Source: an uncultured Christensenella sp. (GTDB taxonomy: Bacteria > Bacillota > Clostridia > Christensenellales > Borkfalkiaceae). From it: a stretch of 64,000 nucleotides of DNA. How positions within the stretch are numbered: position 1 is the stretch's first letter; each line of letters starts with the position of its first letter. Shown here piece after piece: positions 2,252-50,838 of the stretch. The stretch is from the NCBI GenBank assembly GCA_910586065.1, contig CAJUGI010000001.1, positions 229,616 to 293,615 of the forward strand, read 5' to 3'. Made by a program: the position numbers and the translations under genes. The notes below the pieces were generated by a model. The model was not told the DNA's origin. It searched no databases and was given only the letters and a program-made list of their open reading frames with translations.

Positions 2252-3595
2252 ATGAGTAAGAGAACTAAATTCAAACTGTTGATACTCGCTGCGGTATTAT
2301 GTTTTTCCGTATCGCTGTTTGCGGGGTGTGTCGGCGAACTGCACGTAAACGACTTTTTAAACCAGAACAACGCTTTAAATCAGCAGGTAACGTATTACAG
2401 CAACGGCGGTTACTTCGACGGCACGAACAACATCGTTGAAAAAAATGTTTATTATCACGTGAACGATATAGTCATAACCAATTTCGACGCGATACAGGGC
2501 AAGTCGATAAGGCGCGAAGATTTCGTTTTTGCGGGATGGTATTATGCGGAGCTTACCGACAAGCTCGACGAAGAGGGTAACCCCGAACTCGACGCCGACG
2601 GAAATCACATTTTAGTGCCGGTTTTCGAAGACGAGGAAAAGAAAATAGTTAAAAGCACTACGCGCCGCCTCGAAGATAATCTTAAAATTCAGCAGAACAC
2701 GCATCTTTATGTTTGCGCTCACTGGGAAAAGGATGTCGAACTGCAATTCGTACTTGTCAGTGACGGTCCCGTAACGTTAAAATCGGGTGAACGGGTCAAC
2801 CCCGGCGAAGTTATCGCAAGCAAGCGTTTTGTGAGCGGTTCGGCTTCGGTCGGAACCGCGGCGCCTGCGGAAAGCACGGATTTCACGTTCCTGCAATGCT
2901 ATTCCAATCCGGAATGCACAATTCCCGCACCGTATTCGGTTTCCAAACCTTCGGGCGAAGACGCGCAGGCAAGGGCAACCGTTTACGCAAAATATATCGA
3001 AGGCGTCTGGACGGTCGTAAGAAACAAGAGCGACGTAGGCAGAATGTTCTTCAACATTTATACCGATACTAAATTCTATATTTTAAACGATATTGACTGC
3101 TCGAACGAAAGATTTAATCCGCAGCCGCGTACAAGCAGTTCCAACTGCTATATAGAGGGCAACGGCAAAACACTTTCAAATCTTAAGTTCGAATACCCCG
3201 TAGGTACGGGTATAGACGCCGGCGGCACTTATTCGATATTCGGAACTTTCGGTGAAAACGCCGAAATAAAGAACCTTGTTATGGATAACGTAACCGTGTC
3301 CTACACAACGCGCGTAAACGTAAACGGACTTTACTTCTTCTGTGCGGGCGACAACGGCGCAAAGTTTGAAAACTTTACTTTAAGAAACGTTTCAATGGAA
3401 GTGGATTCAGCCAATACGGTGCCCAACATCCAGCTTATCGACGGCGTTTACCAAAGCGGAAGCTGGCTGTTCGGAAACGTTAGTACCGATGCGGAATATA
3501 CAAAGACCGGCACGGGTAAACTCGTAATCGAAGGTAAAAAGCTTATCGTGCAGGGCGTGGTTGTGGTAGACGAACCCGCAACCGGCGCGCAGTAA
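2252..3595 (+). CDS. Lipoprotein of unknown function with a Listeria/Bacteroides-type repeat motif
   Basis: Signal peptide with lipobox SLFAGC. 'FVFAGWYY' resembles the GWY core of the Flg_new/List_Bact repeat. A GAGG ribosome-binding site lies upstream, and the gene starts 19 nt after the LRR gene. Confidence 0.7.
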   Translation: MSKRTKFKLLILAAVLCFSVSLFAGCVGELHVNDFLNQNNALNQQVTYYSNGGYFDGTNNIVEKNVYYHVNDIVITNFDAIQGKSIRREDFVFAGWYYAELTDKLDEEGNPELDADGNHILVPVFEDEEKKIVKSTTRRLEDNLKIQQNTHLYVCAHWEKDVELQFVLVSDGPVTLKSGERVNPGEVIASKRFVSGSASVGTAAPAESTDFTFLQCYSNPECTIPAPYSVSKPSGEDAQARATVYAKYIEGVWTVVRNKSDVGRMFFNIYTDTKFYILNDIDCSNERFNPQPRTSSSNCYIEGNGKTLSNLKFEYPVGTGIDAGGTYSIFGTFGENAEIKNLVMDNVTVSYTTRVNVNGLYFFCAGDNGAKFENFTLRNVSMEVDSANTVPNIQLIDGVYQSGSWLFGNVSTDAEYTKTGTGKLVIEGKKLIVQGVVVVDEPATGAQ

Positions 3596-6334: not shown

Positions 6335-6362
6335 TTAACCGATATAATCGGAGTAAACTTTA

Positions 6363-7361
6363 ATGACAAAATATATTATTAAAAGAATACTTTTGTCCGT
6401 TGTAATTTTGTTTTTCGTTTCGCTTATTCTCTATTTTCTTATAAGGTGTATGCCTGTAAGCTATATTGAGAATAAGTTTAACGAAGCGAATGCTAACGGC
6501 GCAAATCTGACTGAAGAGGACTTAAAACGACTCCTCGCCATTTACGGGTTGGAAGACAGCAGTTTCGGCGGCATAATAAAAGGCTACTTCGGCTGGCTCG
6601 GCAACTTTTTAAAGGGCGATATGGGCACGTCGTTCAAGTACGGCAACCCCGTAAACCAGGTAATAAGCGATTCTATGGGAATTTCTTTTGGAATTTCCTT
6701 TGTCGCGCTCATTCTCGAGCTTATCATCGCTATACCCCTCGGCATCAAGTGCGCAACCAACCAGTACGGTAAATTCGACTACACGGTTACCGTGCTGTGT
6801 ATGGCGCTTATGGCGTTTCCGTCGTTCTTCCTCGGCAATATATTTATTAAAATATTTGCCGTTGACTTAGGTTGGTTCGAAATCGGCGGTTTAAATACGG
6901 GGTCGTTGCAGGGCGTTTCGTTTATAGTAAAATTCTTCGATATGTGCTGGCACCTCGTTTTGCCCATTCTCGTAATGGTGCTCCTCGATATAGGACCTAT
7001 GATGCGCTATACAAGGACGAATACTCTCGAAGTTTTAAACGCCGACTACATAAGAACGGCGCGCGCAAAAGGACTTTCCGAGGGCAAAGTGGTCTATAAG
7101 CACGTTTTCAGAAACACGCTTATCCCGCTTATAACGCTCTTGTCGTCAACGCTTCCCATGCTTTTCGGCGGTGCAATGATTACCGAAACGGTTTTCGCTA
7201 TTCCGGGTATAGGACATACGGCGTACGAGGCGCTTAAAGTGGGCGATATTCCGCTTGCAATGGGCTATAATATGTTTATTGCAATATTAACCGTAATCGG
7301 CGTTTTGCTCGCCGATATAATGTACGCGGTTGTAGACCCTAGAGTTAAATTAGGTAAATAG
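6363..7361 (+). CDS. ABC transporter permease (OppB/DppB-like)
   Basis: Multi-TM protein with the binding-protein-dependent transport motif 'YIRTARAKGLSEGKVVYKHVFRNTLIPLIT' and the C-terminal 'VVDPRVK' typical of OppB. Confidence 0.9.
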   Translation: MTKYIIKRILLSVVILFFVSLILYFLIRCMPVSYIENKFNEANANGANLTEEDLKRLLAIYGLEDSSFGGIIKGYFGWLGNFLKGDMGTSFKYGNPVNQVISDSMGISFGISFVALILELIIAIPLGIKCATNQYGKFDYTVTVLCMALMAFPSFFLGNIFIKIFAVDLGWFEIGGLNTGSLQGVSFIVKFFDMCWHLVLPILVMVLLDIGPMMRYTRTNTLEVLNADYIRTARAKGLSEGKVVYKHVFRNTLIPLITLLSSTLPMLFGGAMITETVFAIPGIGHTAYEALKVGDIPLAMGYNMFIAILTVIGVLLADIMYAVVDPRVKLGK

Positions 7362-7369
7362 GTGTTGCT

Positions 7370-8500
7370 ATGGAAGAAAACAAAAAGGCAACAGGCGTTG
7401 AAATAACTCCGGCTGCGGATGAAGCAAACCTCGGTGAAAGCGTTGAAATAACTGTTACCGAAAAGGAAAACTTCAACGATAACCTGCACGGAGAAAATCT
7501 TACCGAAAGAGCAAAAGTGCTTTCGCCCGGAATGACCGTCTTAAAAAGGTTTTTCCGTTCAAAGCTCTCAATTGTCGGGCTTGTAGCTATTATATTATTG
7601 TTTGTATTTTCGTTTTTCGGACCGCTGTTTTCGCCGTGGAGCGCAAACGGCGGCACCGTAAGGGATTATGATACGGTAAATATTTTAGGTACCTATTCCG
7701 CAATCGAATATGTAGGTCCGGACGGCAATACATATATTGCCTACGACGTTACTATAGAAGGCGATTTATTGAATTATAACAGCCTCGGCGGCATTTCCGG
7801 CAATCACTGGCTGGGAACCACGTTGGAAGGCTACGACGTCTTCACAAGACTTATGTACGGCGGAAGGGTTTCTCTTACAATAGGTTTTGTGGTAATTATT
7901 CTCGAAACTTTAATAGGCGTTATTTTAGGCGGACTTGCCGGGTACTTTGGCAAGTGGGTTGACCAGTTGATAATGCGTATAGTGGACATATTAAGCTGTA
8001 TACCGTCGTTGCCGATAATGCTTATACTAAGCGCCGTGTTCGAAGCCGCAAATATTGTAGACATATCAAGGCTGTATTATATGATGGCGATTTTGTGTTT
8101 ACTCGGTTGGACGGGCACTGCCAGACTTGTAAGGGGACAGATTCTGTCGCTTAGAGAGCAGGAATTTATGCTTGCCGCCAAGTGTTCGGGTCTGTCTACG
8201 GGTAAAAAGATATTCAAGCACTTAATCCCCAATGTAATTCCGCAGCTAATCGTTTCGATGACGCTGGGACTCGGCAGTATAATTCTTATGGAAGCGACTT
8301 TGGGCTATTTGGCGATAGGCGCGCCTGCAGATACTGCAACCTGGGGCACTATGATAGAACTTGCTTCAAGGGCAAGATACAGAAATTACTATCCCAATCT
8401 TTGGCTGGGTGCAGGTATATGCATAACGCTTGCCATACTTGCATTCAACTTTGTCGGAGACGGTCTGCGCGACGCATTCGACCCTAAAATGAAGAGGTAA
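7370..8500 (+). CDS. ABC transporter permease (OppC/DppC-like) with N-terminal extension
   Basis: 'GTTLEGYDVFTRLMYGGRVSL' and 'FMLAAKCSGLSTGKKIFKHLIPNVIPQLIV' are OppC-type motifs. The gene starts 8 nt after the previous gene. Confidence 0.9.
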   Translation: MEENKKATGVEITPAADEANLGESVEITVTEKENFNDNLHGENLTERAKVLSPGMTVLKRFFRSKLSIVGLVAIILLFVFSFFGPLFSPWSANGGTVRDYDTVNILGTYSAIEYVGPDGNTYIAYDVTIEGDLLNYNSLGGISGNHWLGTTLEGYDVFTRLMYGGRVSLTIGFVVIILETLIGVILGGLAGYFGKWVDQLIMRIVDILSCIPSLPIMLILSAVFEAANIVDISRLYYMMAILCLLGWTGTARLVRGQILSLREQEFMLAAKCSGLSTGKKIFKHLIPNVIPQLIVSMTLGLGSIILMEATLGYLAIGAPADTATWGTMIELASRARYRNYYPNLWLGAGICITLAILAFNFVGDGLRDAFDPKMKR

Positions 8501-8502
8501 AA

Positions 8503-9810
8503 ATGGCGGACAACAAGACACAGGACAAAAAGAAACATTATATATCGCGTTCCGAATCCAGACAGATTGCCAAAGAAAACTCCAAGGCGATAAAGTTTTA
8601 CGAAAAGCAGAAAAAACGCAAGGTTAAGCCCGAAGATTACACAACCGAAATGAAAGACGATAAAAATATCGTCGAATTCGAGGATTTACACACTTATTTC
8701 TTTTCGGACGCGGGCACAGTTAAGGCGGTGAACGGTGTGTCTTTCTCTGTTCCCGCAGGCTCTACCGTGGGTGTAGTCGGCGAAAGCGGTTGCGGAAAGA
8801 GCGTCACTTCGCTCTCTTTAATGCAACTCGTACAAGCCCCCAGCGGACAGATTGTAAAGGGTTCCATACGCTTTAAGGCGGACCTTTTCAAACGCGATTC
8901 GCGCGGTAAAAAAATTCCCGTTTACGAAACCGAAACGGACGAAAACGGCGAAGAAAAAGTCAAACTCAACGAAAAGGGCAAACCGATAATAAAGAAAAAC
9001 GCGCTCGGCGGCAATATGTACGAAATGGAAAGTCGCGTGGTTGATATCGCAAAGATGCCTACCGAGGCGATGCGTTCAATCCGCGGCAGGGAAATATCCA
9101 TGATATTTCAGGAGCCGATGACCTCTTTGAATCCCGTATTTACGATAGGCAACCAGCTTGACGAAGTAGGCAGACTGCATATTGAGGGCATTTCCAAACA
9201 GCGCGTAAAAGCGCGCAGTATCGAGATGTTAAAGCTCGTAGGAATCGCCGACCCCGAGGGCGTTTACAAAAAGTACCCCCACGAACTTTCAGGCGGTATG
9301 CGCCAGAGAGTTATGATAGCTATTGCTCTTCTGTGCAATCCCAAGCTTATCGTTGCGGACGAACCTACTACCGCGCTCGACGTTACCATTCAGGCGCAGA
9401 TACTCGACTTATTGCGTGAAATAAAAACAAAAATCAACGGCTCTATAATGCTTATTACGCACGATTTGGGCGTCGTTGCCGAAATGGCGGATTTCGTAGT
9501 GGTTATGTATGCCGGAAAGGTAATAGAAATGGGCACCGCGGAAGATATTTTCGACCATCCCATGCATCCTTACACAATCGGCTTGCAAAAGAGCAAACCC
9601 ACGGTAGATTCGCAGGTTGACGAACTCTATTGCATTCCCGGTTTTGTGCCCAATCCCATTAATATGCCCGATTATTGCTATTTCCGCGACAGATGCGAAA
9701 AGTGCCTTGAAAAATGTGCGGGCGAGTATCCCGGACTCATAAAGGTCAGCGATACCCACAGTGTCTCCTGTTACCTCTATGACGGCGCGGAGGTGAAAAA
9801 TAATGGTTAA
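8503..9810 (+). CDS. ABC transporter ATP-binding protein (OppD-like) with N-terminal extension and an internal insertion
   Basis: Walker A GESGCGKS, signature LSGGMRQR, Walker [14 protein letters not shown] ~55-aa Lys/Glu-rich insert ([15 protein letters not shown]...[10 protein letters not shown]) sits between Walker A and the Q-loop. Confidence 0.9.
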
Positions 9811-11392
9811 TGAAGAGATAACCGAAATAAAAACGGCCGAAACCGGCAAAGACGCAAACCCTTCAACCGAAGTTGAAACGTTAACTGCCGAATCTCACGA
9901 CAGCTTTCTCGAAGTTGACGGACTTTGCAAATATTTTACCGTAGATACCGACATTATCGGCAGACCTACAAAATTTTTAAAGGCTGTTGATAACGTTTCA
10001 TTTAAAGTGCAAAAGGGTAAAACTCTCGGCATAGTCGGCGAAAGCGGCTGCGGTAAAACCACGCTCGGCAGAACCATTTTAAGGCTCTACGACGTAACCC
10101 GCGGCGACGTCTGGTTTAAAGGTCAAAAAGTAACCGACCTTAAAAACCGCGAATTTGATAAGCTCCGTCCCAATATGCAGATGATATTTCAGGACCCTTA
10201 CGCAAGTCTGTCTCCCAGAATCACCGTTGGCGAAATCATAGGCGAGGCGGCGCTTCAGCATAAAATCGTTGAAAAAAGCGCATATCACGACTATATCTTA
10301 AGCGTAATGGATATGTGCGGACTTCAGCCTCACTATTTCGAAAGATATCCGCACGAGTTCTCAGGCGGTCAGAGGCAAAGAATTTGTATTGCCCGCGCGC
10401 TCGCGTTAAAGCCCGAGCTCGTCGTCTGCGACGAACCGGTATCCGCGCTCGACGTTTCTATTCAGGCGCAGATAATCAATATGCTTATCGAACTGAGAAA
10501 GACTCTCGGTTTAACCTATCTTTTTATTTCTCACGACTTGTCTGTAGTAAAACATATTTCCGACGAAGTCGGCGTAATGTACCTCGGCACTATGATGGAG
10601 TACGGCAGTAACGACGCCATATTCAATCACACGTTGCATCCGTATACGCGTGCATTGTTTTCTGCGGTTCCCGTGCCTAATCCGCACGTGAAGATGAACA
10701 GAATAATCCTCCGCGGCGACATTCCCTCGCCCGTCAATCCGCCCAAGGGCTGTAAGTTCCATACGCGTTGCGAAAACTGTATGGATATCTGCACCAAGGC
10801 GGCGCCTCCTTTCAAAGAGGTTGAAAAAGGACATTTCTGCGCTTGCCATCTTTACACTACCGAAGAGGAGCAACAGCAACTTTTAATTAAAGCCGAAGAT
10901 GAAGAAAAAAAGCTTGCCGAAGAGGAAGCTAAAAAAATCACATTTAAAAAGGTGTGGGGAACGGTAACCGAAAAGGTAAAGGACGTAATCAAAAAGGACA
11001 AACCCGAAGAGTCAAAAGCTGAAAACTCTTCAAATCAACCTGCCGAAACGGTTTCCGCAAATAAAGAGGACGTAACGTCCGAACAGGTTGCCGAAGTTCC
11101 GGCTCCCGCAGTGGTTCCCGTTGCGGAAATTGCAACCGAAAAACCTGCAGCCAAAGCTCCCGCAAAGGAGCCCGCACCTCAAAAAGTTTCTTCGGATAAA
11201 ACCGAAAAACCCGCAGTAAATAAATCTGCACCGGCAAGAAAGACGTCGGCGTCTGCAAATAAAAAGCCTGCGCAGAATTCTTCGCAAAAGGGTACAAAAG
11301 TGGCAAAAGCGGCGCCTGCAAATAAATCAGGCTCTGCCGGAGCTAAAAAGCCCGCTGCGAAATCCGAGGTAAAAGATGCCGAGGAAAAATAA
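9803..11392 (+). CDS. ABC transporter ATP-binding protein (OppF-like) with ~178-aa disordered Lys/Ala/Pro-rich C-terminal tail
   Basis: GESGCGKTT, FSGGQRQR, LVVCDEPVSALD and the Opp C-terminal motif 'PPKGCKFHTRC...GHFCACHLY'. A low-complexity tail then runs to the stop. The gene overlaps the previous gene by 8 nt. Confidence 0.9.
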   Translation: MVNEEITEIKTAETGKDANPSTEVETLTAESHDSFLEVDGLCKYFTVDTDIIGRPTKFLKAVDNVSFKVQKGKTLGIVGESGCGKTTLGRTILRLYDVTRGDVWFKGQKVTDLKNREFDKLRPNMQMIFQDPYASLSPRITVGEIIGEAALQHKIVEKSAYHDYILSVMDMCGLQPHYFERYPHEFSGGQRQRICIARALALKPELVVCDEPVSALDVSIQAQIINMLIELRKTLGLTYLFISHDLSVVKHISDEVGVMYLGTMMEYGSNDAIFNHTLHPYTRALFSAVPVPNPHVKMNRIILRGDIPSPVNPPKGCKFHTRCENCMDICTKAAPPFKEVEKGHFCACHLYTTEEEQQQLLIKAEDEEKKLAEEEAKKITFKKVWGTVTEKVKDVIKKDKPEESKAENSSNQPAETVSANKEDVTSEQVAEVPAPAVVPVAEIATEKPAAKAPAKEPAPQKVSSDKTEKPAVNKSAPARKTSASANKKPAQNSSQKGTKVAKAAPANKSGSAGAKKPAAKSEVKDAEEK

Positions 11393-11627
11393 AAAAGACG
11401 ACCTCGATATGGAAACCAGCTTTGCGGATATGAACGTGGAAGGCTTCCGCTGGTACGACCCGTATGCAAAAAAGAACAACGGTGTAAAGCAGGTTAAGCA
11501 AAAGATTTCCCGCAAGGAATACTGGGCGATGGTGCGCGGCGCGTTTGCGGCAATGCTCCCTATGATAGGATGCATTGTTCTGGCAATGGCGGCGGTTGTC
11601 GCCATAGCTTATCTGTGGCTCGGTTAA
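11376..11627 (+). CDS. Small single-pass membrane protein (83 aa), unknown function
   Basis: The ATG lies 6 nt after GAGGT and overlaps the 3' end of the OppF-like gene. There is one C-terminal hydrophobic helix (AAMLPMIGCIVLAMAAVVAIAYLWL). Confidence 0.55.
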   Translation: MPRKNKKDDLDMETSFADMNVEGFRWYDPYAKKNNGVKQVKQKISRKEYWAMVRGAFAAMLPMIGCIVLAMAAVVAIAYLWLG

Positions 11628-11691: not shown

Positions 11692-12495
11692 ATGAAGGAA
11701 AAAACCGCAAAAACGGTACGGCTTGTCAGCGGAATTGTGCTCAGCGCAATGACCGTTATTCTCGCCGCGCTGTTTATATGGCAGGTTCTCGATATCCTCG
11801 CCGTCGGCACTTCCGAAGGATATGAAGGTTTCATATTCACAAGGGACGACGTAGCCGCAAGGCTGTTCAGGCTTTTGCCGGCAATCGTCATATGGATAGC
11901 GCTCATTATCGCGGGTTTCGTTTTATGGGAAGTTTTCCCCGTCAAGCCCGCCCGTGCTAAAAACGATAGCAGTTATATTTTAAAACGCTATAAAAAGCGC
12001 ATTCCCGCGGCTGTGCCCGAAGAACTTAAAGGCTCGCTGCAATTCATAAACGGTGAAGAAGAGAACTTAAAAATCATCCGCATTATCGCGGCTGTGATTT
12101 GCGGCGTCGGGGTGCTCTGCGGAGTAATTTATCTTTCCAATCCCTCAAACTTTCCCAAGGATGACGTAACTGCCGAAATGGTAAATATGGTTAAAAACGT
12201 ATTTCCTTGGGCTGCCGCGGCGCTCGTTTTATGGTGCGGCGTAGCAATTTATGAAGAGATTTCTTCAAAAAAGCAGCTCGAACACGCAAAAAAGCTCGCT
12301 GGCAAAATGAAAGTTGAAATTTACCACGGAAAAATCTATGCTTTCTTAAATCACAAATTTTTCCTTTTGGGCGCAAGAATCGTGCTCGGCGTGCTTGCCG
12401 TTGCGTTCATAATCGCCGGCGTTACCGGCAATTCTTTGCACAGCGTTCTTATAAAAGCAATAAATATCTGTACGGAGTGTATCGGTCTTGGCTAA
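11692..12495 (+). CDS. Polytopic membrane protein ending in a CXXC tail (KAINICTECIGLG)
   Basis: AGGAGG ribosome-binding site. There are about five hydrophobic helices. The C-terminal ...ICTECIGLG resembles, from memory, the CD1871A-type CXXC family that sits next to 4Fe-4S genes in clostridia. Its stop overlaps the start of the next gene. Confidence 0.7.
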   Translation: MKEKTAKTVRLVSGIVLSAMTVILAALFIWQVLDILAVGTSEGYEGFIFTRDDVAARLFRLLPAIVIWIALIIAGFVLWEVFPVKPARAKNDSSYILKRYKKRIPAAVPEELKGSLQFINGEEENLKIIRIIAAVICGVGVLCGVIYLSNPSNFPKDDVTAEMVNMVKNVFPWAAAALVLWCGVAIYEEISSKKQLEHAKKLAGKMKVEIYHGKIYAFLNHKFFLLGARIVLGVLAVAFIIAGVTGNSLHSVLIKAINICTECIGLG

Positions 12496-14224
12496 GGTAA
12501 AAAATTTCTTTATAAAAACCGGACAGTGGTTCAAAAATCACGCTCCGTCCAAGCGCCGTATCATTCAGGTATATGCGGCGTTATTGACAAACGCAAACAT
12601 AAAGGGTTTCGTAACCGGCAGAATTTACCGCGGCGGCACAAAAAATCTTTGCACGCCGGGATTGAACTGTTATTCCTGTCCGGGCGCGGTCGGCGCGTGT
12701 CCTTTGGGCGCACTGCAGGATTCCCTTGCAAAATCCGGCACAAGTTTCCCATATTATATATTGGGTATTTTAGGGCTTTTGGGACTTCTGTTCGCAAGAA
12801 CAATTTGCGGTTTCTTCTGTCCGGTAGGTTTGGGGCAAGAACTTCTCCACAAAATCAAAACTCCCAAACTGAAAAAAAGCCGTTTCACCCGCGTGCTTTC
12901 GTACTTAAAATACGTGCTGTTGGCAGTTCTGGTAATAGCAATCCCCATAATTTATCAGGGAATACCGGCATTTTGCAAATACGTTTGTCCCGCAGGCACG
13001 TTCGGCGGCGCGGGAGGACTGCTGATTAATCCGGGCAACGCCGATTTCTTCGATATGCTCGGTTATTTGTTCAGCTGGAAGTTCGTGCTCCTCGTCATAT
13101 TCATCGTTGGCAGTATATTTATTTACAGGTTCTTCTGCCGTTTCTTCTGTCCGCTCGGCGCAATATACGGTTTCTTCAACAAAATCGCTCTTATGGGTGT
13201 GAAATTAGACGAAGAGAAGTGCGTTGACTGCGGCTTATGCATACAGACGTGTCAGATGGACATAAAGCACGTCGGCGACCACGAATGTATCAACTGCGGA
13301 GCGTGCATAAAGGTCTGCCCCACGCAGGCAATAAGCTGGAAAGGCTCGCAAATCTTTTTGCATTCTAATATGGCAACCGCCTCCGCGGCGGCAAACGAAG
13401 CCGAAAAGATAAATCTTCTGGCGGTAAATTCAAATAATCAATCGGCAACAATGTCAACGCCCAAAGCGGTTACAACCCAAACGGCACAAGAAACAGTAAA
13501 GGCCGAAACGGTAATTCATCCCGTAGAGGAAGAGGGCAAAATTCAGCCCACGGCAACCGGCAACGCAATAAAAGCCCCCGCAATGGTAAAAGTTAAGCGT
13601 CCTCCGAAGGGCAGGCGCTACTGGCTTGAATTTGCCGCGTGGATAGCGGCGGCGGTTGTGCTCTTAACGGCGCTCGTGTATTACAACTTTCTGGCTCCTA
13701 CGGCTTCAACGGTGGCTTACGGCGTTGGCGACAAGTGTCCCGACTTCACGCTTACTCTCTACGAAAGCGAGGGCAGCAAAAAGGACGGCGGCTATTACAA
13801 AAAGGTTTCTTCAAACGTAATTGCGGACGACACAATTTGCAGTAAAGATAAAGTAACCGTAATAAATTTCTGGTATACCGACTGTGACCCCTGCAAGGCG
13901 GAACTTCCGTACTTTGCAAAGGTAAAACAGGAATACGGCGACGAAATTTTAATGATAACCGTTCAAACCGACCCTTATGCGGACGTACAGGAATTTATCG
14001 ATACGACGCTTGACCCCACGGATAATGCGACGCATTGGAGGGACTGGGGAATAATCTTTGCCGAAGAAGACCCTTCGCTCGATACCTACGGTATGTTCGG
14101 CGGCAAGTCTGCTTACCCCACGACGGTAATAATCGACGCCGACGGCGTAATAAGTTTCTACCGCGACGGCTCTCTTCCCGAAGCCACCCTGCGCGAGGAA
14201 ATCCAAAAAGCGCTCAAAAAATAA
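12488..14224 (+). CDS. Membrane polyferredoxin (NapH/MauN-like 4Fe-4S protein) fused to a C-terminal TlpA/ResA-type thioredoxin domain
   Basis: The TTG start overlaps the upstream stop. N-terminal motif: 'CTPGLNCYSCPGAVGACPLG'. TM-embedded CP motifs: FFCPVGLGQ, YVCPAGTFG and FFCPLGAIYG. Two ferredoxin motifs: CVDCGLCIQTC and CINCGACIKVCP. These are followed by an Ala/Thr-rich linker, an extra TM helix (WIAAAVVLLTALVYY), and then 'VINFWYTDCDPCKAELP...YPTTVIIDADGVI'. Confidence 0.85.
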   Translation: MAKVKNFFIKTGQWFKNHAPSKRRIIQVYAALLTNANIKGFVTGRIYRGGTKNLCTPGLNCYSCPGAVGACPLGALQDSLAKSGTSFPYYILGILGLLGLLFARTICGFFCPVGLGQELLHKIKTPKLKKSRFTRVLSYLKYVLLAVLVIAIPIIYQGIPAFCKYVCPAGTFGGAGGLLINPGNADFFDMLGYLFSWKFVLLVIFIVGSIFIYRFFCRFFCPLGAIYGFFNKIALMGVKLDEEKCVDCGLCIQTCQMDIKHVGDHECINCGACIKVCPTQAISWKGSQIFLHSNMATASAAANEAEKINLLAVNSNNQSATMSTPKAVTTQTAQETVKAETVIHPVEEEGKIQPTATGNAIKAPAMVKVKRPPKGRRYWLEFAAWIAAAVVLLTALVYYNFLAPTASTVAYGVGDKCPDFTLTLYESEGSKKDGGYYKKVSSNVIADDTICSKDKVTVINFWYTDCDPCKAELPYFAKVKQEYGDEILMITVQTDPYADVQEFIDTTLDPTDNATHWRDWGIIFAEEDPSLDTYGMFGGKSAYPTTVIIDADGVISFYRDGSLPEATLREEIQKALKK

Positions 14225-14234
14225 TTAAGTTTGT

Positions 14235-14272
14235 AAAGGCTCCCTTTAAACTAAAAGGGAGCCTTTGATTTT
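14235..14272 (+). terminator. Intrinsic terminator after the polyferredoxin gene
   Basis: 12-bp stem aaaggctccctt/aagggagccttt with an 8-nt loop, followed by gatttt. Confidence 0.7.
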
Positions 14273-14289
14273 CAGTTAATATAAATAAA

Positions 14290-14322
14290 TTCCTCTCAGG
14301 ACTTTTCCTGAGAGGAATTTTT
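14290..14322 (-). terminator. Terminator hairpin for the convergent lipoprotein operon (T-runs on both strands)
   Basis: Stem ttcctctcagg/cctgagaggaa. On the minus strand it is followed by tttatttat, and on the plus strand by ttttt. Confidence 0.65.
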
Positions 14323-14337: not shown

Positions 14338-16461
14338 TTAGTTAACAGGCGTTACTTTTACGTATAACGATGCTTCTAAAACGTTGTTCGCACAATAGAA
14401 GTACAACAAATCGCCCTTATTTAACGTTACGTTAACGGTAAAGTTATTTGACTGGTTAAATTTCAGTTCCAACGCCGTGGGGCCTTCGCCAACATAAGCA
14501 GTTATTTCCTGACCGTAAATTCCCATGCCGGATGAAATTTCAATAGTGTAAGTGCCGTTATCACCGATAAATTCAACTTCCGTCTCGTTGGCTTCGATAA
14601 GTTTTACTTCCAACTCCTCACCGACTTTCAGCTTGTTGTTATTTTCGTTTTCGGTTTTATTAAGCGTAACGCTATAGGTCTCACCGTATATTGCTTCGTT
14701 CTCGTCGAAATAGAATATTACGTTATATACTTTGCCGGCTTCGACCTTGAATGCCGTGCTGGTTTTATTATAAGATTCAAAAACGTTGTTGCCGTCAACC
14801 GTAATTCGCTCTATTTCTACGGGAACAGCGCCTTCAAATATATACCATCCGTCTTCCTGAACCGTAAATGAGAAGTAAAGGTCTTCGCCTTCATATGTCA
14901 GATTAGCCGTTCCGGGATTAATCTGAGTGTTGCTTTCGGCGTAATATACACAGGGAAGTAACCAGTTGTTTTCTTTGTTGCTTACCGAAGCTCCCGCAAA
15001 TCTGTCTGCAAACGTCTGAAGGAATTTATAAAGGTCTTCATTCAAACCGTAAACGCCGTCTGCGTTAACAAAGAACGTATAAAAGTTTATCAGTCCTTTA
15101 TAATCGTAAACTTTATTGTTTTCTTCGTCGGATATTAAAGCGTTGGTCCAGGTATTAATCGCGTCGCCTATTCTGTCGCCTACAACGTCGGTTTTAGTGA
15201 GCATAACCGCAATAATTTTGCCGTCTTTGCTGTTCATATGATAATATCCGTCGTCTCCCAGAACAGCCTTAACCGAGCCGTCTACAGGCACAGCCGTAAG
15301 ATTTTTCTCCTTTGCGAATTCCGGGGGGTTCATAGTCGAAGGCTGAACTATTTCCGTATCAATTTCCCCGCGCGATGTTGCTTCGCCTGTTCTTTCAACG
15401 GTTATACTAACCGTGCAGTCCGTTGCGGAAGTAACGTAAAAATAATAGCTTGCCGCAGATTTTGTTAAATCCAAATCGAGTTCGATATAATCGGTTCCTG
15501 TATATTTATCGTCCGAGCCGTTACCGGTAATCGCCAAAATCTGAGTAGGACGTCCGTTTTTGTCTACGGGAGTATAGCCGGGGCTTGCATAAAAATGTCT
15601 CAAAACAGGCGTGGCGGAAGCGGTGGTGGTGGAAATGGTAAGCTTATACTTGCCTGTCGCCGCAAGAGTGGACATATTTGTAATTGCAACGCTTATCGCG
15701 CTCGCCTCGTCCGGCGTATAGGGAAGCCCGGTATCGGGGTTAATATCGGTTGTTCCAACGGTTCTGGGGTTTTTAAAAGTCGAAAAATCGAAATAGCTAA
15801 TCTCTCCCGCCTTAACGTTAAGCTGCAAAACTTTATCCGCGCTCTCTTTAAACGCCGCTTCGGGGTTATCCAGCGAATTCTGTCCGTTGTATGCAAATTC
15901 ACGGTAATAGGGGTGTAATGGTCTTTCCGAATAATAAAAGTGTTCGGGTACGTAGTCGAACTCAACCTTGGCGCTCTTTTCACCGTCAAAACCGAAATAG
16001 GTTATGGGCAGATGCGTAACTTCGTCGTTTACCGTGTGCAGAATGTAGTTGTAAGGAACAGCTCTGTCGTTTGCCGTTTCACCGCTCTGCGCCACTTTAA
16101 CAAAGTATTCTGCGCCGGCAACTGGTTTAAACTCGCCGAAAGGAATGGGAGTATTTGATGTGGCAACAAATTTTACCACGCCGTTTGCGTCGGTTTTTGC
16201 TCTCGTCAGCGTTTCCTGAACTATATAAGTTTGCCCTACGTCTTCAGGGTCAACGTTTTCTCCGCCTTCAACTGTTTTGGTTACATTGTAAAATAATTCA
16301 ATCCAAACGTTTGCAATAGGCGTTTTGGCGTCGGTAGTGTCGGTTACTGTTACTGTATAAGTTTCGCCGTCGTTTCCGCCGCAGGCTGTAAGCCCCAGCG
16401 CAAACGCAACCACGCAAACAACACTCAAAAGCGTAATCAGCAGCTTTTTGCATTTAGTCAT
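14338..16461 (-). CDS. Large lipoprotein, unknown function, with an N-terminal transthyretin/carboxypeptidase-regulatory-like beta domain
   Basis: Lipobox GLTACGG. I prefer the second ATG (MTKCKK...) because GGAGAA lies 5 nt upstream of it; the ORF track starts 12 nt earlier, at 16473. The 'FADRFAG...NNWLLPCVYY' segment resembles the C-terminus of the 957-aa neighbour. Confidence 0.75.
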   Translation of the reverse strand: MTKCKKLLITLLSVVCVVAFALGLTACGGNDGETYTVTVTDTTDAKTPIANVWIELFYNVTKTVEGGENVDPEDVGQTYIVQETLTRAKTDANGVVKFVATSNTPIPFGEFKPVAGAEYFVKVAQSGETANDRAVPYNYILHTVNDEVTHLPITYFGFDGEKSAKVEFDYVPEHFYYSERPLHPYYREFAYNGQNSLDNPEAAFKESADKVLQLNVKAGEISYFDFSTFKNPRTVGTTDINPDTGLPYTPDEASAISVAITNMSTLAATGKYKLTISTTTASATPVLRHFYASPGYTPVDKNGRPTQILAITGNGSDDKYTGTDYIELDLDLTKSAASYYFYVTSATDCTVSITVERTGEATSRGEIDTEIVQPSTMNPPEFAKEKNLTAVPVDGSVKAVLGDDGYYHMNSKDGKIIAVMLTKTDVVGDRIGDAINTWTNALISDEENNKVYDYKGLINFYTFFVNADGVYGLNEDLYKFLQTFADRFAGASVSNKENNWLLPCVYYAESNTQINPGTANLTYEGEDLYFSFTVQEDGWYIFEGAVPVEIERITVDGNNVFESYNKTSTAFKVEAGKVYNVIFYFDENEAIYGETYSVTLNKTENENNNKLKVGEELEVKLIEANETEVEFIGDNGTYTIEISSGMGIYGQEITAYVGEGPTALELKFNQSNNFTVNVTLNKGDLLYFYCANNVLEASLYVKVTPVN

Positions 16462-16545
16462 AATTTTCTCCATACTATTATTATTTTTTGTAAAAGCGCG
16501 GAAAAGTTTTCACACTATCCCGCGCTTTTTTTAAGTTTTATCGGG

Positions 16546-16938
16546 TTAATTTGTTTTTGTAAGGGTGTAATTCACTGTCCCGAACCCTGTTGCATACTGC
16601 TCGGCACCGTAAGAATAACCTGCGGGCACCTTGTTGAGCTGAACGTGGAACGACTGTCCGCCTTCAAGTGCGGGTAAATCTACGTTGCAGGTTGCTTCTC
16701 CGTTTGCGTCAAGTTTAACGGGAGTACCGTAGCATTGAATCGTTTCCTGCTTATCGGCCGATACAAGACACCACTGAACGGTAATCTGCGTATAATCGAA
16801 ACCTTCTTCCGCACAGACAACCTTAACGGAATACGCCGTTGCGCCGTCTCCGCCGCACGCGGGCATAAACGCGCAGGTCAGCGTTGCGGCAACGGCAACA
16901 AGCAAACCTATTACCAAAAGTTTTAAGTTCTTTTTCAT
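16546..16938 (-). CDS. Small lipoprotein (130 aa) consisting of one transthyretin-like beta domain
   Basis: Lipobox FMPACGG. 'YSVKVV...LDANGEATCNVDLPALEGGQSFHVQLNKVPAGYSY' parallels the N-terminal domains of both neighbouring lipoproteins. Confidence 0.7.
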   Translation of the reverse strand: MKKNLKLLVIGLLVAVAATLTCAFMPACGGDGATAYSVKVVCAEEGFDYTQITVQWCLVSADKQETIQCYGTPVKLDANGEATCNVDLPALEGGQSFHVQLNKVPAGYSYGAEQYATGFGTVNYTLTKTN

Positions 16939-16962
16939 ATTTGTCCTCCAAAATATTTTAAA

Positions 16963-19836
16963 TTAAATGTTGTAATATTCGTAATAGCACGCAAACATCT
17001 TCCATGCGCCGGTATTAAGTCCGTCGCCTGCAAAATTGCTGTTAAAGTTCTGAATGAAGTTTGCAAGCATATTTACAAGTTCGGACGAAGCTTCAAGCAG
17101 TCCGTAATCGGGGTCGCTCTTACGTTTTCCCTGTTTGGACTTTGAAAGGAACTCTTTCATTTTCGACGTGTTATTACCAAAATAATTGTTGTTTATCAAC
17201 CATTCAAGCGAGTGGTTTTGATTGTCAAAGTAGTTGCCGTGTACAAAGTCGATATATATTTTCGAACCGTAGGAGTTGTTGTCGTTGTAATAATATATAC
17301 CGTCCTGACCAAGAACCGTGGGTACTGCAAGATAATATATAAAGCCGTCAAGGGTATAAGTCCACATACCTTCCGCAGTCGAGCAAACCTTAATCATATT
17401 AATTGAAGTTTGAGGTAAACGCTCGATTTTTACGTTAAAATTACCTTGGTCGTTAGGAACTGCGGTGTCGCATTGCAAAAAGTACGTTCCGGCTTCCAGT
17501 ACCTGATATTTAAAGATGTTCGAATTTTCGTAAGAATTCCGTGTAAACTTGTCGTAACGCAAATCAGTGGTTTCATCAAAAATTATTTCACCGACGCTGT
17601 TATTATTTTCGTAATAAAGAGCAAGTCTGGGGTCCGTGTTGTTATTGTTAATAGTAGTGGTAAAGTGATAAATACCTTTTGCCGGCAAAGTAATTTTATA
17701 CCAGAGTCCGCCGCCGTAATCGGTCATCATTATTTTGGTTTTGTTTACCGTAAACTGATACGAGTTTCCGGGAATGTTAATCGCAAAAGCGTTTTCCGCA
17801 ATAAGCCCTTTTACAGGGTCTTTATAACTGAAGCAGTTGTCTTTGTCGGCTTCGGCGCTTGCCTGCGTATCGTGTCTGAATCCGTAATGGCGGTAGAAGT
17901 AGCACATTTCAAGCCACTGGTCCTCATAGTAACCGTACTTAGCCTTGTCGCCGTCGTTTTTATGCTCTTCGGCGTAAGCTTTCGTAAACTCTATAATTGC
18001 GTTTTTCAGATTTTCCGTTAAAGGCGTAAGCTGATTATCCGAAAATTCCTGAAGATAATAATTCCTGATAATCGTATCCGTCATTTTCTGGTCGCCGTAA
18101 GTAAATTTGAGTCCGCCGTCTTTATCGGCCGTCTCACGGTTTGACATATACCAGTAAGATATGCGGTAAAGCGAAGAGGGCTGGGTGGAAACTCCGCTTA
18201 TAGGAATAAACGTATCCGCGCCGAAGTGTTTTTCCGTCCAGGGTGAAGCCTGGTTGATATTCGCAAGCAACAAATACTTTTCGCCGTTATCGTCCGAATA
18301 GTAATAATATCCGTCTTCCTGGTTTATCGTAAGTCTATCCGATATTCCGTAAGAACCGTTCGAAAGCGTTTCGCCGTCTATTACCGAAACGCGCTGGTCT
18401 ATAGCCGTTTCGCTCTTTGTTACGTCGGTAATCGTAATGTTTCTTATCGAAGCCGTGTCGGTGCCGTCGTCTTTAAGAGGGTCCTTAATGTATATAAACG
18501 AAAGGGTGAGGTTAACCGTATGGTCCGCAACGTAAACTCCGTAATTCTGCACCCAGCCGTTATTACTGCCTGCGGTGCCGGTCGAATTTCCGCTGTGTTC
18601 GCCGACTATCTGTCCGTTAATAAGCGCAAACAGAATGTCGTTACCCGCCTCGGTGTCCACTTTGTATTCATAAGAAAGCGCGTCGCCGCTCTGAAGCGTC
18701 AGGTCAATATAAACGGTGGCGTAGGAATAAGGCTTTTTACTGTTGGATGCGGTCATATACCCGCCACCCTCGCCTATTATCCAGGGCCAGGTATAAGGAA
18801 CGTCTTTTTCGTTCGTTTCGGGGCTGAAATCGCCTATTTTACCATCTGTGCCCTCGCCGAGAACGTTTGCTTTGAACACCGAAGACGCGGGCATTTCAAC
18901 ACTTCCGTCAAACTTCGTGCGTTCTGTGGGCGTTTCGTTATTATCAGAATCAGAAGGGTCGTCCTGCGTGTAATCGTCGGAAGCATATTTATTGAAAAGC
19001 GCTTTCCAAGCCGATTCCTGAGGTATGCTCGAAACGTGCACTTCCGCAATTACGCCGTATCTGTCAATAACGACGGTGGTGGGGAACGCGGTTACGCCGA
19101 ACGCGCCGGTTATTCCCGCATTGTCGCGCGCGCAGTGGAAAGTAAGTCCCCAGTCGCTTTGGAATTTCGCTATTTCGTCTGCGCTGTCAGTCGAGTCAAG
19201 CGCAACTACGCTCACGGTATCCGCATAAGCCTTATAAGCTCTTTCAAGCGCGGGGAACTCCGTTTTGCACGCCGAGCATTCGGTGTACCAGAAGTTAAGA
19301 ACAACCGCTCTTTTCGTCTTAAAAAGTTCCTCAAGCGTCAACTGAATGCCGTAACTGTTCGTAAAGCTGAAATTGTGCATTATATCGCCTACGGAATATC
19401 TCGTACCCGAAGTCATCGTCTGCGAAATTACTTTCGAAGAAATAACAACTTCCGCGTTTTCCTTGTCGGCGGTGGTGGTAAAGGAAGTGCCTGCGGGCAC
19501 ATAGTAACCCGCGGGGAGTTTTTCCTCGTCTACAACCAATTCGTATTCGCCTGCCGGTAAACCGAATTCGATTTTACCCTCGTTCGAGGAAATACCGGTT
19601 GCAATTTCGTTTCCGCCCTTTTTAGCAGTAACGGTAATGTTCGAAAGCGCCAGACCTCCGATTGATTTAACAGAAATTACATATTTGCCTCTGTATTCGC
19701 TTCCTTCGTCCGTCGTACCGGGGTTTCTGAAGTTGGGCGACATATTCTTGCCGCCGCAAGCGGCAACCGCAAACGCTACGCACACCGTAAGGCACGCAAG
19801 TAACACGGTTATCAATATTTTTCTTAATTTACTCAT
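16963..19836 (-). CDS. Lipoprotein with a beta-sandwich domain, a TlpA/ResA-type thioredoxin domain and a ~650-aa C-terminal region of unknown function
   Basis: Lipobox AVAACGG. 'GKIEFGLPAGEYELVVDEEKLPAGYYVP', then 'VVLNFWYTECSACKTEFP...FPTTVVIDRYGVI'. The protein ends 'GAWKMFACYYEYYNI'. Confidence 0.8.
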   Translation of the reverse strand: MSKLRKILITVLLACLTVCVAFAVAACGGKNMSPNFRNPGTTDEGSEYRGKYVISVKSIGGLALSNITVTAKKGGNEIATGISSNEGKIEFGLPAGEYELVVDEEKLPAGYYVPAGTSFTTTADKENAEVVISSKVISQTMTSGTRYSVGDIMHNFSFTNSYGIQLTLEELFKTKRAVVLNFWYTECSACKTEFPALERAYKAYADTVSVVALDSTDSADEIAKFQSDWGLTFHCARDNAGITGAFGVTAFPTTVVIDRYGVIAEVHVSSIPQESAWKALFNKYASDDYTQDDPSDSDNNETPTERTKFDGSVEMPASSVFKANVLGEGTDGKIGDFSPETNEKDVPYTWPWIIGEGGGYMTASNSKKPYSYATVYIDLTLQSGDALSYEYKVDTEAGNDILFALINGQIVGEHSGNSTGTAGSNNGWVQNYGVYVADHTVNLTLSFIYIKDPLKDDGTDTASIRNITITDVTKSETAIDQRVSVIDGETLSNGSYGISDRLTINQEDGYYYYSDDNGEKYLLLANINQASPWTEKHFGADTFIPISGVSTQPSSLYRISYWYMSNRETADKDGGLKFTYGDQKMTDTIIRNYYLQEFSDNQLTPLTENLKNAIIEFTKAYAEEHKNDGDKAKYGYYEDQWLEMCYFYRHYGFRHDTQASAEADKDNCFSYKDPVKGLIAENAFAINIPGNSYQFTVNKTKIMMTDYGGGLWYKITLPAKGIYHFTTTINNNNTDPRLALYYENNNSVGEIIFDETTDLRYDKFTRNSYENSNIFKYQVLEAGTYFLQCDTAVPNDQGNFNVKIERLPQTSINMIKVCSTAEGMWTYTLDGFIYYLAVPTVLGQDGIYYYNDNNSYGSKIYIDFVHGNYFDNQNHSLEWLINNNYFGNNTSKMKEFLSKSKQGKRKSDPDYGLLEASSELVNMLANFIQNFNSNFAGDGLNTGAWKMFACYYEYYNI

Positions 19837-20005
19837 TGTCTGCCTCCTTTAATTCGTTTAAAATTCTATTCCATATTATTTTAATATATTTATAATCTTA
19901 AATCAAGTAAATTGTCGATAAAAATACAAATTTTATTCAGTAACAATCAAAAATTTTTTAAAATTTTATAATTATGCGTATAAAACAACAAAATGAATAA
20001 AATCC

Positions 20006-21639: not shown

Positions 21640-22986
21640 TTATTTTCCGCTTAAATCCTCGTGGGGAACAAAGCTGTAAACTTCCTTTAAAACTCTGCGC
21701 ACAAACAGCTTGTATTGTCTTGCGCCCGATTCGAACAACACGTAAACCCTGTCGCCGGAAACGCACAACCCTTCCGACATAGAGGGAACGGAATATTTGT
21801 TAAGCATACTTCCGCCGTCTATAAAGTAAACCCTTAAAGAACTTAAATTCAGATTGTTTTCCGTTGCTGGCGCGTTGGATTTAGTGGTAACGCCGCGGTA
21901 TTCAAAGTATTTTTCGTCCTTGTTGAAGTTGCGGTAAGTTTTATAATTGCTGTTCTTGGATATGACGGACCAGTCGTAAAAATACAAATTCGAATTCTTT
22001 AAACCGTAACTTTGCGAAAGCACCAGCTTATCGTTTAGTTCGGTGGTGGTTTCACCGTTGGAATTGGTTACCTGTTTTGTACCGTGAATGCGCGCAAAAC
22101 CCTGAATTTCAGCGGGAATGGAATAAATATTCTGAACCTGCGGAACCCTGTTCGAATAAGCCGGGTCCAGTCTGTCTGAATAAACGCAGTTCAAACCCGT
22201 CAAGTTGCTTTCGTTCGTCATATTGGTGGAGGTGTTAACGCTGTATTCATAAACGAAAGCGGTGTTATAATCGCCTGCGGGCGTTTTACCCTTGTGCGTG
22301 TCGTCCGTCTGATATTTTCTTCCGCGTTCAAATTCGCCTACGTACAGCTTGTCGCCCTGTAATTCGTTATAAGACTGGTTATATCTTCCGTCGCGGTAAT
22401 AATAGAGGAATGAAGCCTTTCCGTTCGCGTTGAACTTCGAAGTAAACTGAATTTCACCGTTTTCGTGCGCCTTTGCAACGATTTCACGTCCTATTTTATA
22501 GTCAAAAGACTTGTCCGTCGTCTTTGCGCAATAAACGTAACCCTCGTCGCCTTCGTTCGAGCAAATCCACAAAAAGTAACCGTTTGTGGCAATTCCGCCG
22601 CAATGTCCGTTATAATAACCTTCGCCGTCCGCGTTTTTAACCGTTACGTATCCCACGTAGCCGGTGGTTTTTCCGGTGACGTAAATGCGGGAGGGTGCGC
22701 CTTTTAAATAAGAACTTATAAAAAAGTACTCGTCGCCTTCGTAATCAACCGAAGTTTTATTGCCGTCTTCGCCTTCGGTTTCAACTTTAAAAGCGTCGGT
22801 TTTCCAGTTCGTAATACCCTGCGGCGTAGCTCCGTCCGCAAGTCCGGGTATGCCGAATTCCGCGTTAAAAGTGCCGTCAAACTGCGGATAGGTGTCTCCC
22901 CAGTACCATAAGAGTAAAAAGGTTGCCAGCACCACAACCGCCGAAAAAATTACTATTCCCGTTATAAACAGCTTTTTGCTTTTCAT
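21640..22986 (-). CDS. N-terminally membrane-anchored extracytoplasmic protein, unknown function
   Basis: 448-aa ORF with a single N-terminal helix (LFITGIVIFSAVVVLATFLLLWYW). The rest is beta-rich and rich in Tyr, Gly and Asn. I recognise no family. Confidence 0.65.
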   Translation of the reverse strand: MKSKKLFITGIVIFSAVVVLATFLLLWYWGDTYPQFDGTFNAEFGIPGLADGATPQGITNWKTDAFKVETEGEDGNKTSVDYEGDEYFFISSYLKGAPSRIYVTGKTTGYVGYVTVKNADGEGYYNGHCGGIATNGYFLWICSNEGDEGYVYCAKTTDKSFDYKIGREIVAKAHENGEIQFTSKFNANGKASFLYYYRDGRYNQSYNELQGDKLYVGEFERGRKYQTDDTHKGKTPAGDYNTAFVYEYSVNTSTNMTNESNLTGLNCVYSDRLDPAYSNRVPQVQNIYSIPAEIQGFARIHGTKQVTNSNGETTTELNDKLVLSQSYGLKNSNLYFYDWSVISKNSNYKTYRNFNKDEKYFEYRGVTTKSNAPATENNLNLSSLRVYFIDGGSMLNKYSVPSMSEGLCVSGDRVYVLFESGARQYKLFVRRVLKEVYSFVPHEDLSGK

Positions 22987-46259: not shown

Positions 46260-46387
46260 AAGCGCCTTACCTGCGCAAAATACGTAATCCGCGCCGAAGT
46301 CACGGATACGGACGGAAACGCGTTGCAAAAGCTTTATGTTAAAATTGACGGTTTTCCGCAATCAAAAGAAATATTGGATAAATTGTT

Positions 46388-47581: not shown

Positions 47582-47604
47582 ATTCGAATATTCGGGAGAA
47601 GAAA

Positions 47605-49343: not shown

Positions 49344-49469
49344 ATATAGATTTTTATGGACAAATCAGACCTTTTTATGTAATTTTCAGACATCGGGCTT
49401 TTTAAAAAACGTCATTAAAACGTATTTAATTTTGAAAAAACGTAAAAAACCATTAAAAACGGCAGAGGT

Positions 49470-50780: not shown

Positions 50781-50796
50781 AAATAAGTGACGTAAA

Positions 50797-50825: not shown

Positions 50826-50838
50826 TTGCTGATTTTGT

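Follow-up and report, generated by a model that had tools for sequence, protein, structure and literature searches.

The locus described here raises the question of what a thioredoxin does when it sits inside a large surface lipoprotein, and from where it might receive its electrons. The stretch of DNA that was analyzed, hereafter the window, comprises 64,000 nucleotides from an uncultured Christensenella sp. (contig CAJUGI010000001.1 of assembly GCA_910586065.1); open reading frames (ORFs) were called and protein families scanned on this window, and all coordinates are window positions. Three consecutive co-directional ORFs of 957, 130 and 711 amino acids lie on the minus strand, separated by 24 and 72 bp, and the operon that they form is convergent with a plus-strand gene for a membrane polyferredoxin that ends in a thioredoxin domain of its own. 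In Gram-positive bacteria, extracytoplasmic thiol reduction is understood mainly through CcdA together with ResA, StoA or Etrx. We propose that the three lipoproteins and the polyferredoxin fusion could make up an extracytoplasmic thiol-disulfide reductase system, a reading to which we give about an even chance.

A thioredoxin domain inside the 957-aa lipoprotein (gene at 16963..19836, minus strand) had been claimed in a preliminary description of this DNA, and the family and fold searches agree with it. Residues 149-273 exceeded the Pfam cut-offs for the families AhpC-TSA (E 3e-16) and Redoxin (E 2e-14), and the domain as delimited from Pfam, Foldseek and alignment extends over residues 143-290 (18967..19410, minus strand). 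In Foldseek it superimposed on ResA structures with target-normalised template-modelling scores (TM-scores) of 0.84-0.92 and a root-mean-square deviation of about 2 Å, and its sequence, 28% identical to ResA, aligned in register with ResA of B. anthracis. The active site consists of C187-S-A-C190, Glu193 at position CXXC+3 and cis-Pro252, with IDRYG as the family signature. C187, C190, E193 and P252 were invariant in an alignment of 39 family members, and a glutamate occupied CXXC+3 in all 31 members in which the motif pattern matched; E193 corresponds to Glu80 of ResA. The domain is thus predicted, from sequence and model, to be a ResA/TlpA-type thioredoxin fold with reductase-type features.

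The preliminary description also took this domain and that of the polyferredoxin to be close paralogs, a kinship that we could not confirm beyond the level of the family. The two domains share 31% identity over 113 residues (BLAST E 1e-13). In phmmer searches with the lipoprotein domain, the polyferredoxin thioredoxin scored 55.0 bits compared with 59.4 for B. anthracis ResA and 50.3 for B. subtilis ResA, and a hidden Markov model (HMM) of the lipoprotein thioredoxin family gave ResA 87.8 bits and the polyferredoxin domains a median of 69.2 (maximum 85.2). A specific, recent duplication was rejected because the scores to Bacillus ResA were equal or higher. Both domains are ordinary ResA/TlpA members, paralogous only through their common family, and the motifs NFW.T.C..C..E.P and PTT are features of that family, not signs of a special relationship.

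The candidate electron donor is encoded by the convergent operon. Its polyferredoxin-thioredoxin fusion (578 aa; 12488..14224, plus strand), recognized with Pfam and NCBIfam as NapH-like, contains a cysteine cluster (C55/C61/C64/C71), three CX3CP motifs and two 4Fe-4S motifs, followed by a linker, a transmembrane helix and a C-terminal ResA/TlpA-type thioredoxin with the active site CDPC. All 18 cysteines of the polyferredoxin domain and both thioredoxin cysteines were kept in 48 of 48 homologs. The likeness to NapH is at the level of domains only, as the score against the NapH model TIGR02163 was 71.6 bits with a cut-off of 213. The preceding gene, which overlaps the polyferredoxin start by 8 nt (11692..12495, plus strand), encodes a polytopic membrane protein of 267 aa with a C-terminal CTEC. 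Its last 37 residues match the whole of the 38-position NCBIfam model for the CD1871A-family CXXC protein (33.5 bits, cut-off 32), so the tail of this protein corresponds to what the model describes elsewhere; C260 and C263 were kept in 45 of 45 homologs.

The association of the two operons was followed across genomes. A family scan with one genome per species showed that at least 391 species genomes encode a relative of the 957-aa protein, almost all of them Clostridia, with Pumilibacter muris, Christensenellaceae, Borkfalkiaceae and Coproplasma among the named carriers and Faecousia, Oscillospiraceae and Lachnospiraceae among the more distant ones; the examined loci came largely from metagenome-assembled genomes (MAGs) of gut and rumen Clostridia. 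For linkage, 80 genome loci were fetched regardless of their neighbors, and at least 6 kb of downstream sequence was required for a locus to be counted. The probe was the N-terminal polyferredoxin part, and cross-matches between thioredoxins were therefore avoided. In the closer group (25-76% C-terminal identity to the window protein) the polyferredoxin gene was found downstream and convergent, 1.3-6.8 kb away, in 26 of 27 loci. It was likewise downstream and convergent in 19 of the 36 loci of the distant group (22-27% C-terminal identity), and in two further distant loci (L043 and L049) it lay upstream on the same strand. Reciprocal look-ups starting from three polyferredoxin homologs (55-58% identical) led each time to genes for a thioredoxin lipoprotein of 955-963 aa and for a protein of 131-147 aa, convergent with the polyferredoxin gene. 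Most of the linked loci have the 267-aa membrane protein along with the polyferredoxin. The linkage holds even where the C-terminal part of the lipoprotein is down to 23-27% identity and the far flanks have changed. The co-conservation that the preliminary description had named as the test of a single cell-surface thiol-redox system was thus recovered in related genomes, and because both clusters are co-conserved this idea survives, although electron flow between them is a matter of inference. In one MAG labeled Roseburia sp. (GCA_023666445.1; locus L004, 13595-15769), the fusion was called only as a 211-aa redoxin fragment; tblastn shows an intact N-terminal polyferredoxin part at 14879-15769, and a frameshift, a pseudogene or a gap in gene calling could account for this.

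Beyond the thioredoxin, the lipoproteins contain a domain for which we found no described family. A segment shared by the 957- and 711-aa proteins (F..F.G....W....C.YY) had been pointed out earlier, and it proved to be larger than described: it forms the C-terminal end of an alpha/beta domain of 120-200 residues, here named X, of which the 957-aa protein has two copies and the 711-aa protein one. Profile-profile comparison of the two families gave a probability of 99.4% (E 7e-22) over about 190 columns, and hhalign probabilities between the individual domains were 99.5% for X1-X2, 98.9% for X1 and the copy of the 711-aa protein, and 94.8% for X2 and that copy. On the minus strand, X1 covers residues 477-680 (17797..18408) and X2 residues 809-957 (16966..17412), the latter ending in WKMFACYYEYYNI, as delimited with hhalign and the structural model; the copy in the 711-aa protein, placed by alignment and hhalign, covers residues 395-515 (14929..15291) and ends in WLLPCVYY, with C508 invariant. 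The domain is marked by the conserved motifs DGYY[HY], PVTxxLK and WLxxCxYY, the last of which reads WLExCxYYxHYG in X1; the motif cysteine never varies in the 711-aa family and reaches at least 90% conservation in X1.

An exhaustive search of 1.84 billion representative proteins with a profile of X built from 26 sequences gave 981 matches at E<=1e-3, of which 388 reached E<=1e-10. The top 150 matches were mostly 900-1000 aa long. Among ten matches of atypical length, seven carried a Redoxin/AhpC-TSA domain, mostly with immunoglobulin-like (Ig-like) domains ahead of it, and the thioredoxin domain was present in all 39 aligned members of the 957-aa family; X travels with the thioredoxin. Against PDB sequences the X profile returned only noise (best E 0.09, to coronavirus spike N-terminal domains), and a Pfam scan of each X member at E<=1 yielded 19 different single-member matches, none of them consistent. 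As far as sequence comparison goes, X is a new repeated domain, absent from Pfam, from NCBIfam and, by sequence, from the PDB.

Searches of all ORFs with HMMs in the 69 loci with enough flanking sequence located a small lipoprotein with a cysteine pair in 56 and a lipoprotein with X only in 51, both of them in closer and distant relatives. The gene order in the closer group is 957-like, small, X-only; in the distant group the 957-like gene is followed by an X-only gene of 410-520 aa and then the small one. Eight distant loci (L042, L052, L061, L062, L072, L077, L080 and L082) have a second, larger thioredoxin-plus-X lipoprotein (981-1464 aa) in the same cluster, and the one in L080, of 1076 aa, contains extra Ig-like repeats. 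Beyond the lipoprotein operon, on the side away from the polyferredoxin, the neighbors vary from locus to locus, with genes for an M18 aminopeptidase, grpE-dnaK-dnaJ, an asparaginase or feoAB.

The AlphaFold2 model of the 957-aa protein, computed from a 39-sequence alignment, had a mean predicted local distance difference test score (pLDDT) of 86.6 and a predicted TM-score (pTM) of 0.63. In this model the signal peptide with its lipobox cysteine (C27) and a low-confidence tether (residues 1-46, linker 16-46) lead into a seven-stranded prealbumin/Ig-like beta-sandwich (residues 47-142; 19411..19698, minus strand), after which come the ResA/TlpA-type thioredoxin, an all-beta domain resembling a jelly-roll by its model secondary structure (305-476; 18409..18924, minus strand), X1, an eight-stranded beta-sandwich with a PPC/collagen-binding-like sequence pattern (681-808; 17413..17796, minus strand) and X2. 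The sandwich at 681-808 falls inside the hhalign match to the 711-aa family. Pfam and NCBIfam recognize only the thioredoxin domain and, weakly, CarboxypepD_reg, here as well as across the 39 family members: the N-terminal match to CarboxypepD_reg (PF13620) has E 0.009 and 16.8 bits with a cut-off of 32.3, and among the 39 members this domain was matched by SpaA (PF17802) in 14 and by CarboxypepD_reg in three. The jelly-roll had no Pfam match in any of the 39, and residues from about 290 to 957 lie outside every family in Pfam, NCBIfam and the PDB sequences. Fold searches were run with whole-protein models instead of isolated domains. Every match of the 957-aa model in the PDB fell on the thioredoxin domain, and a viral fold library returned generic multi-sandwich matches (CUB, F5/8-C, CBM-type) with TM-scores of 0.2 or less.

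The third gene of the operon (14338..16473, minus strand) was called as 711 aa. The ORF probably starts at Met5, giving 707 aa, because every homolog in the family alignment begins there. Its model, from only eight sequences, has a pLDDT of 69.8 and shows an Ig-like domain, beta-sandwiches, X (alpha/beta, about 395-515) and two C-terminal PPC-like sandwiches. No part of this protein is covered by any Pfam, NCBIfam or PDB-sequence family, and the family profile gave only noise against PDB sequences (E 0.48, to DHFR-TS). The top Foldseek match of the model was to the tandem collagen-binding domains of ColG (5iku, E 8e-8), at a target-normalised TM-score of 0.28. The sequence pattern of the 711-aa protein (...GxYxF... 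AGxxY...) resembles that of PPC-type sandwiches. However, the 711-aa protein has no peptidase domain and the TM-score is low; in addition, the PPC domain (PF04151) had no Pfam match in the window proteins or in family members. According to the model, the likeness to ColG does not go beyond that of a generic binding sandwich.

The several hundred residues in which the preliminary description recognized no family are therefore confirmed as such, both in the 957-aa protein and over the entire 711-aa protein, and family, PDB-sequence and fold searches connected the C-terminal regions to no unrelated well-known enzyme family. Its suggestion of large enzymatic lipoproteins fared less well: no enzyme fold was found for either whole model in the PDB and viral fold searches. 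The models point to binding-type beta-sandwich modules plus domain X as the predicted make-up of both proteins outside the thioredoxin, without a catalytic fold. The three proteins were also said to begin with a similar beta domain, which holds at the level of the fold, since models and profiles indicate small beta-sandwiches at all three N-termini, but only in part at the level of sequence. The hhalign probability was 88.7% for the Ig domains of the 130- and 957-aa proteins and a weak 65.7% for those of the 957- and 711-aa proteins, and the relation between the 130- and 711-aa proteins was undetectable; neither of these two smaller proteins matched PF13620 or PF17802.

The middle gene (16546..16938, minus strand) encodes the 130-aa protein, whose family carries a single Ig-like domain akin to the one at the N-terminus of the 957-aa protein. 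Its relatives are lipoproteins of roughly 127-170 aa, with some up to about 262 aa. A cysteine pair, C57/C69, is invariant in 38 of 38 relatives within the motif VQ[IFW]C x(2-16) C, which reads VQWC...C in the window protein. Because of this invariant pair, the small lipoprotein is the best candidate, and on present sequence evidence the most likely one, for a direct redox partner or client of the thioredoxin.

The operon set out in the preliminary description was recovered with identical boundaries. The Shine-Dalgarno sequence AAAGGAGG precedes the 957-aa gene, the first of the operon, and 5' of it are two overlapping sigma-70-like promoter candidates (19878..19911, minus strand) that each match nine of 12 consensus positions and are proposed from this match only. 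Lipoboxes were defined as [LVI][ASTVI][GAS]C closing an N-terminal signal peptide. Of the three that had been claimed, those of the 957-aa protein (VAAC, C27) and the 711-aa protein (LTAC, C31) are canonical; that of the 130-aa protein (FMPAC) is atypical, with proline at -2, although its relatives have canonical boxes and the lipobox cysteine is present in 37 of 38. All three proteins are predicted to carry extracytoplasmic targeting signals. Between the stop codons of the two convergent operons there are two hairpins with T-rich tails, one with a 15-pair stem that would end the lipoprotein operon (14287..14320, minus strand) and one with a 14-pair stem that would end the polyferredoxin operon (14234..14267, plus strand). 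No other terminator-like stem in a 10-kb scan comes close to them in length, although the total count of such sites in the scan was no higher than in shuffled sequence, and they agree with the back-to-back terminators described for this convergence.

Domain content, cysteine conservation, targeting signals and gene linkage are thus observed; the direction of flow, the order of the relay and the identity of the substrate are what we infer. In the proposed system, reducing power from the cytoplasm would enter through two membrane proteins, the NapH-like Fe-S protein and its partner with the CXXC tail, and electrons would then reach the exofacial ResA/TlpA-type domain of the polyferredoxin. From there, thiol-disulfide exchange would hand them to the domain of this type in the tethered 957-aa lipoprotein, and this domain would pass them to a client; in the 957- and 711-aa proteins it may be the jelly-roll, PPC-like and X modules that hold the partner or substrate. 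As for other electron donors or clients, the called genes of seven annotated neighborhoods include no CcdA/DsbD or Msr gene.

Several points weigh against such a relay. Of the 36 distant loci that offer at least 6 kb of downstream sequence, 17 have no polyferredoxin gene within 10 kb, and part of the linkage in the closer relatives may be inherited synteny, because genes of an oligopeptide transporter (Opp) are also conserved nearby. The dipeptide within the CXXC of the lipoprotein thioredoxin family is very variable (CSWC, CGPC, CSAC and others). Hydropathy gave no clear placement of the CX3CP motifs or the CXXC tail relative to the membrane, so that any electron route across it is hypothetical. 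Finally, the proposal is drawn from single-protein models, gene linkage and sequence.

Among the alternatives, the one that survives best is that these are surface adhesins or binding lipoproteins whose thioredoxin acts in cis or on the operon partners, in folding or in keeping their few cysteines reduced, with the polyferredoxin nearby by synteny and without a direct link. We consider this rather unlikely. It would fit the binding-type beta-sandwich modules that make up most of the protein mass, the fast divergence of the lipoproteins (23-76% identity) compared with the polyferredoxin (58-96%), and the Opp genes, which are likewise syntenic in closer relatives. The polyferredoxin family also seems much larger than that of the lipoproteins, with more than 5,000 clusters at 90% identity against 391 species genomes and about 980 X clusters at 50%, although these measures differ. 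However, linkage to the polyferredoxin persists in the distant relatives, annotated as Oscillospiraceae or Lachnospiraceae, in which the Opp synteny is gone, and it occurs also in the other arrangement, upstream and on the same strand, in L043 and L049.

A wider version of the proposed relay, which we likewise regard as doubtful, would have an Fe-S-driven route replace the path from thioredoxin to CcdA/DsbD in gut Clostridia and feed a three-lipoprotein, X-based surface complex that captures external disulfides and reduces them, as an exofacial electron sink or to harvest host or dietary peptides joined by disulfides. Disulfide harvesting or electron disposal can also be taken as an explanation in itself, in which captured disulfide-containing peptides, proteins or small disulfides would be reduced for uptake by Opp or to dispose of electrons. 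An Opp operon with a family-5 binding protein of about 900 aa lies directly upstream of the polyferredoxin operon in closer relatives, an M18 aminopeptidase gene is divergent upstream of the lipoprotein operon in the window and in L001 and L011, and NapH-type proteins elsewhere feed extracytoplasmic reductases, although the NapH likeness here is at the domain level. We think this explanation improbable: the Opp linkage is limited to closer relatives, with the small Opp-coupled protein in only one distant locus, and the aminopeptidase stands beside the operon only in L001 and L011 among 84 loci.

Repair of extracellular oxidative damage, as with Etrx1/Etrx2, CcdA and MsrAB2 of S. pneumoniae, is in our view quite improbable too. 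Here the thioredoxin would reduce a repair enzyme or oxidized surface proteins of a strict anaerobe. A lipoprotein-anchored ResA/TlpA-like domain is common to both systems, and the Etrx2 structures 4hqz and 2yp6 were among the fold and sequence matches. Against this, no CcdA/DsbD (DsbD_TM) or Msr (PMSR, SelR) gene was found among the called genes of seven annotated neighborhoods, the rest of each genome not being searched, and Etrx proteins, single-domain and about 185 aa long, leave about 670 extra residues and two partner lipoproteins unexplained. A dedicated ResA/StoA-type maturation factor for cytochrome c assembly or spore cortex synthesis, suggested by the ResA proteins as best sequence and fold matches of the thioredoxin and by a weak match to the StoA model, is very unlikely and was rejected because the 957-aa protein stays below the family cut-offs (ResA model NF002854, 75.6 bits, cut-off 170; StoA model NF041202, 34.9 bits, cut-off 210) and none of the seven annotated neighborhoods showed ResB/ResC or CcsBA genes, its architecture also being unlike the roughly 180-aa ResA and StoA. 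A spore link of the lipoprotein operon finds no support.

The Opp-type ATP-binding cassette (ABC) operon upstream of the polyferredoxin operon occupies 3629-11627 (plus strand). SBP_bac_5 matches only about residues 503-789 of its family-5 binding protein, which at 901 aa is unusually large, OppF (529 aa) has a long low-complexity tail rich in Ala, Lys and Pro, and the start of a gene for an 83-aa protein with a single transmembrane helix (47-90% identity among relatives) overlaps the oppF stop. The block, including the 83-aa protein, is syntenic with the polyferredoxin operon, upstream of it, in many closer relatives. In many relatives a protein of 422-448 aa with SDH_alpha (PF03313) as its only domain is encoded on the opposite strand between the Opp and polyferredoxin operons (L085 7816-9090, L086 7717-8991, L087 7733-9001, also L002-L004); it is not there in the window, and the idea that it is a cysteine desulfidase was set aside, as it has no NCBIfam match. 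Further upstream of the Opp operon, on the plus strand, are genes for a BspA-type leucine-rich-repeat protein (58-2232; LRR_5, E 7e-76) and for a 447-aa protein with no family match (2252-3595). A 448-aa protein with an N-terminal transmembrane helix and no family match (21640-22986, minus strand) shows conservation (76-77% identity) in no relatives but the closest two, L001 and L011. In the stretch at about 46000-64000 of the window, GC skew is near zero or slightly negative at first and turns strongly positive (+0.13 to +0.20) from about 48 kb onward, with the cumulative minimum near 42-46 kb; either a switch related to replication or altered gene orientation could lie behind this.

In databases, the proteins of this set are named 'TlpA family protein disulfide reductase', 'redoxin domain-containing protein', '4Fe-4S binding protein' or 'hypothetical', and no published description was found in the literature on CD1871A, NapH-thioredoxin fusions, or TlpA with NapH and 4Fe-4S. 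The analysis therefore defines a conserved gene set without a functional name in the databases searched. If the relay is true, it would be a second way to energize surface thiol chemistry in strict anaerobes and a handle on how these organisms treat surface disulfides or oxidants, and a cultured carrier, Pumilibacter muris CLA-AA-M08 (locus L007), makes the idea testable.

Membrane polyferredoxins of the NapH/NosH/MauN/RdhC type feed extracytoplasmic redox enzymes, and the candidate donor resembles them in its CX3CP motifs within a polytopic membrane domain followed by two 4Fe-4S motifs. Unlike them, it is fused through an extra transmembrane helix to a TlpA-type domain and paired with a CD1871A-type CXXC membrane protein, and its acceptor would be a thiol-disulfide protein instead of a metalloenzyme. 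The closest structural relative of the thioredoxin domain is ResA of Bacillus, which works with CcdA, ResB and ResC in cytochrome c maturation and is likewise extracytoplasmic, with a CXXC, a glutamate at +3 and a cis-proline; the protein described here differs in falling below the family cut-off, in having no ResBC/CcdA neighbors, in its multi-domain architecture and in a lipid anchor in place of a transmembrane helix. The closest functional analog is the pneumococcal system, in which the surface thioredoxin lipoproteins Etrx1 and Etrx2 work with CcdA1/2 and MsrAB2 (PMC3914529). The two share a lipobox-anchored, ResA/TlpA-like surface thioredoxin encoded beside a membrane protein that could supply electrons. 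In contrast to Etrx, the thioredoxin here is part of a chain of about 950 aa with Ig-like, jelly-roll and PPC-like modules and two X domains; the candidate donor is not CcdA but the pair of a CXXC membrane protein and a NapH-like Fe-S protein that has a TlpA domain of its own, and instead of an Msr client the neighborhoods offer two partner lipoproteins. The locus thus belongs to a known kind, the extracytoplasmic thioredoxin lipoprotein, to which it adds domain X, a conserved set of three lipoproteins and an unusual candidate electron donor.

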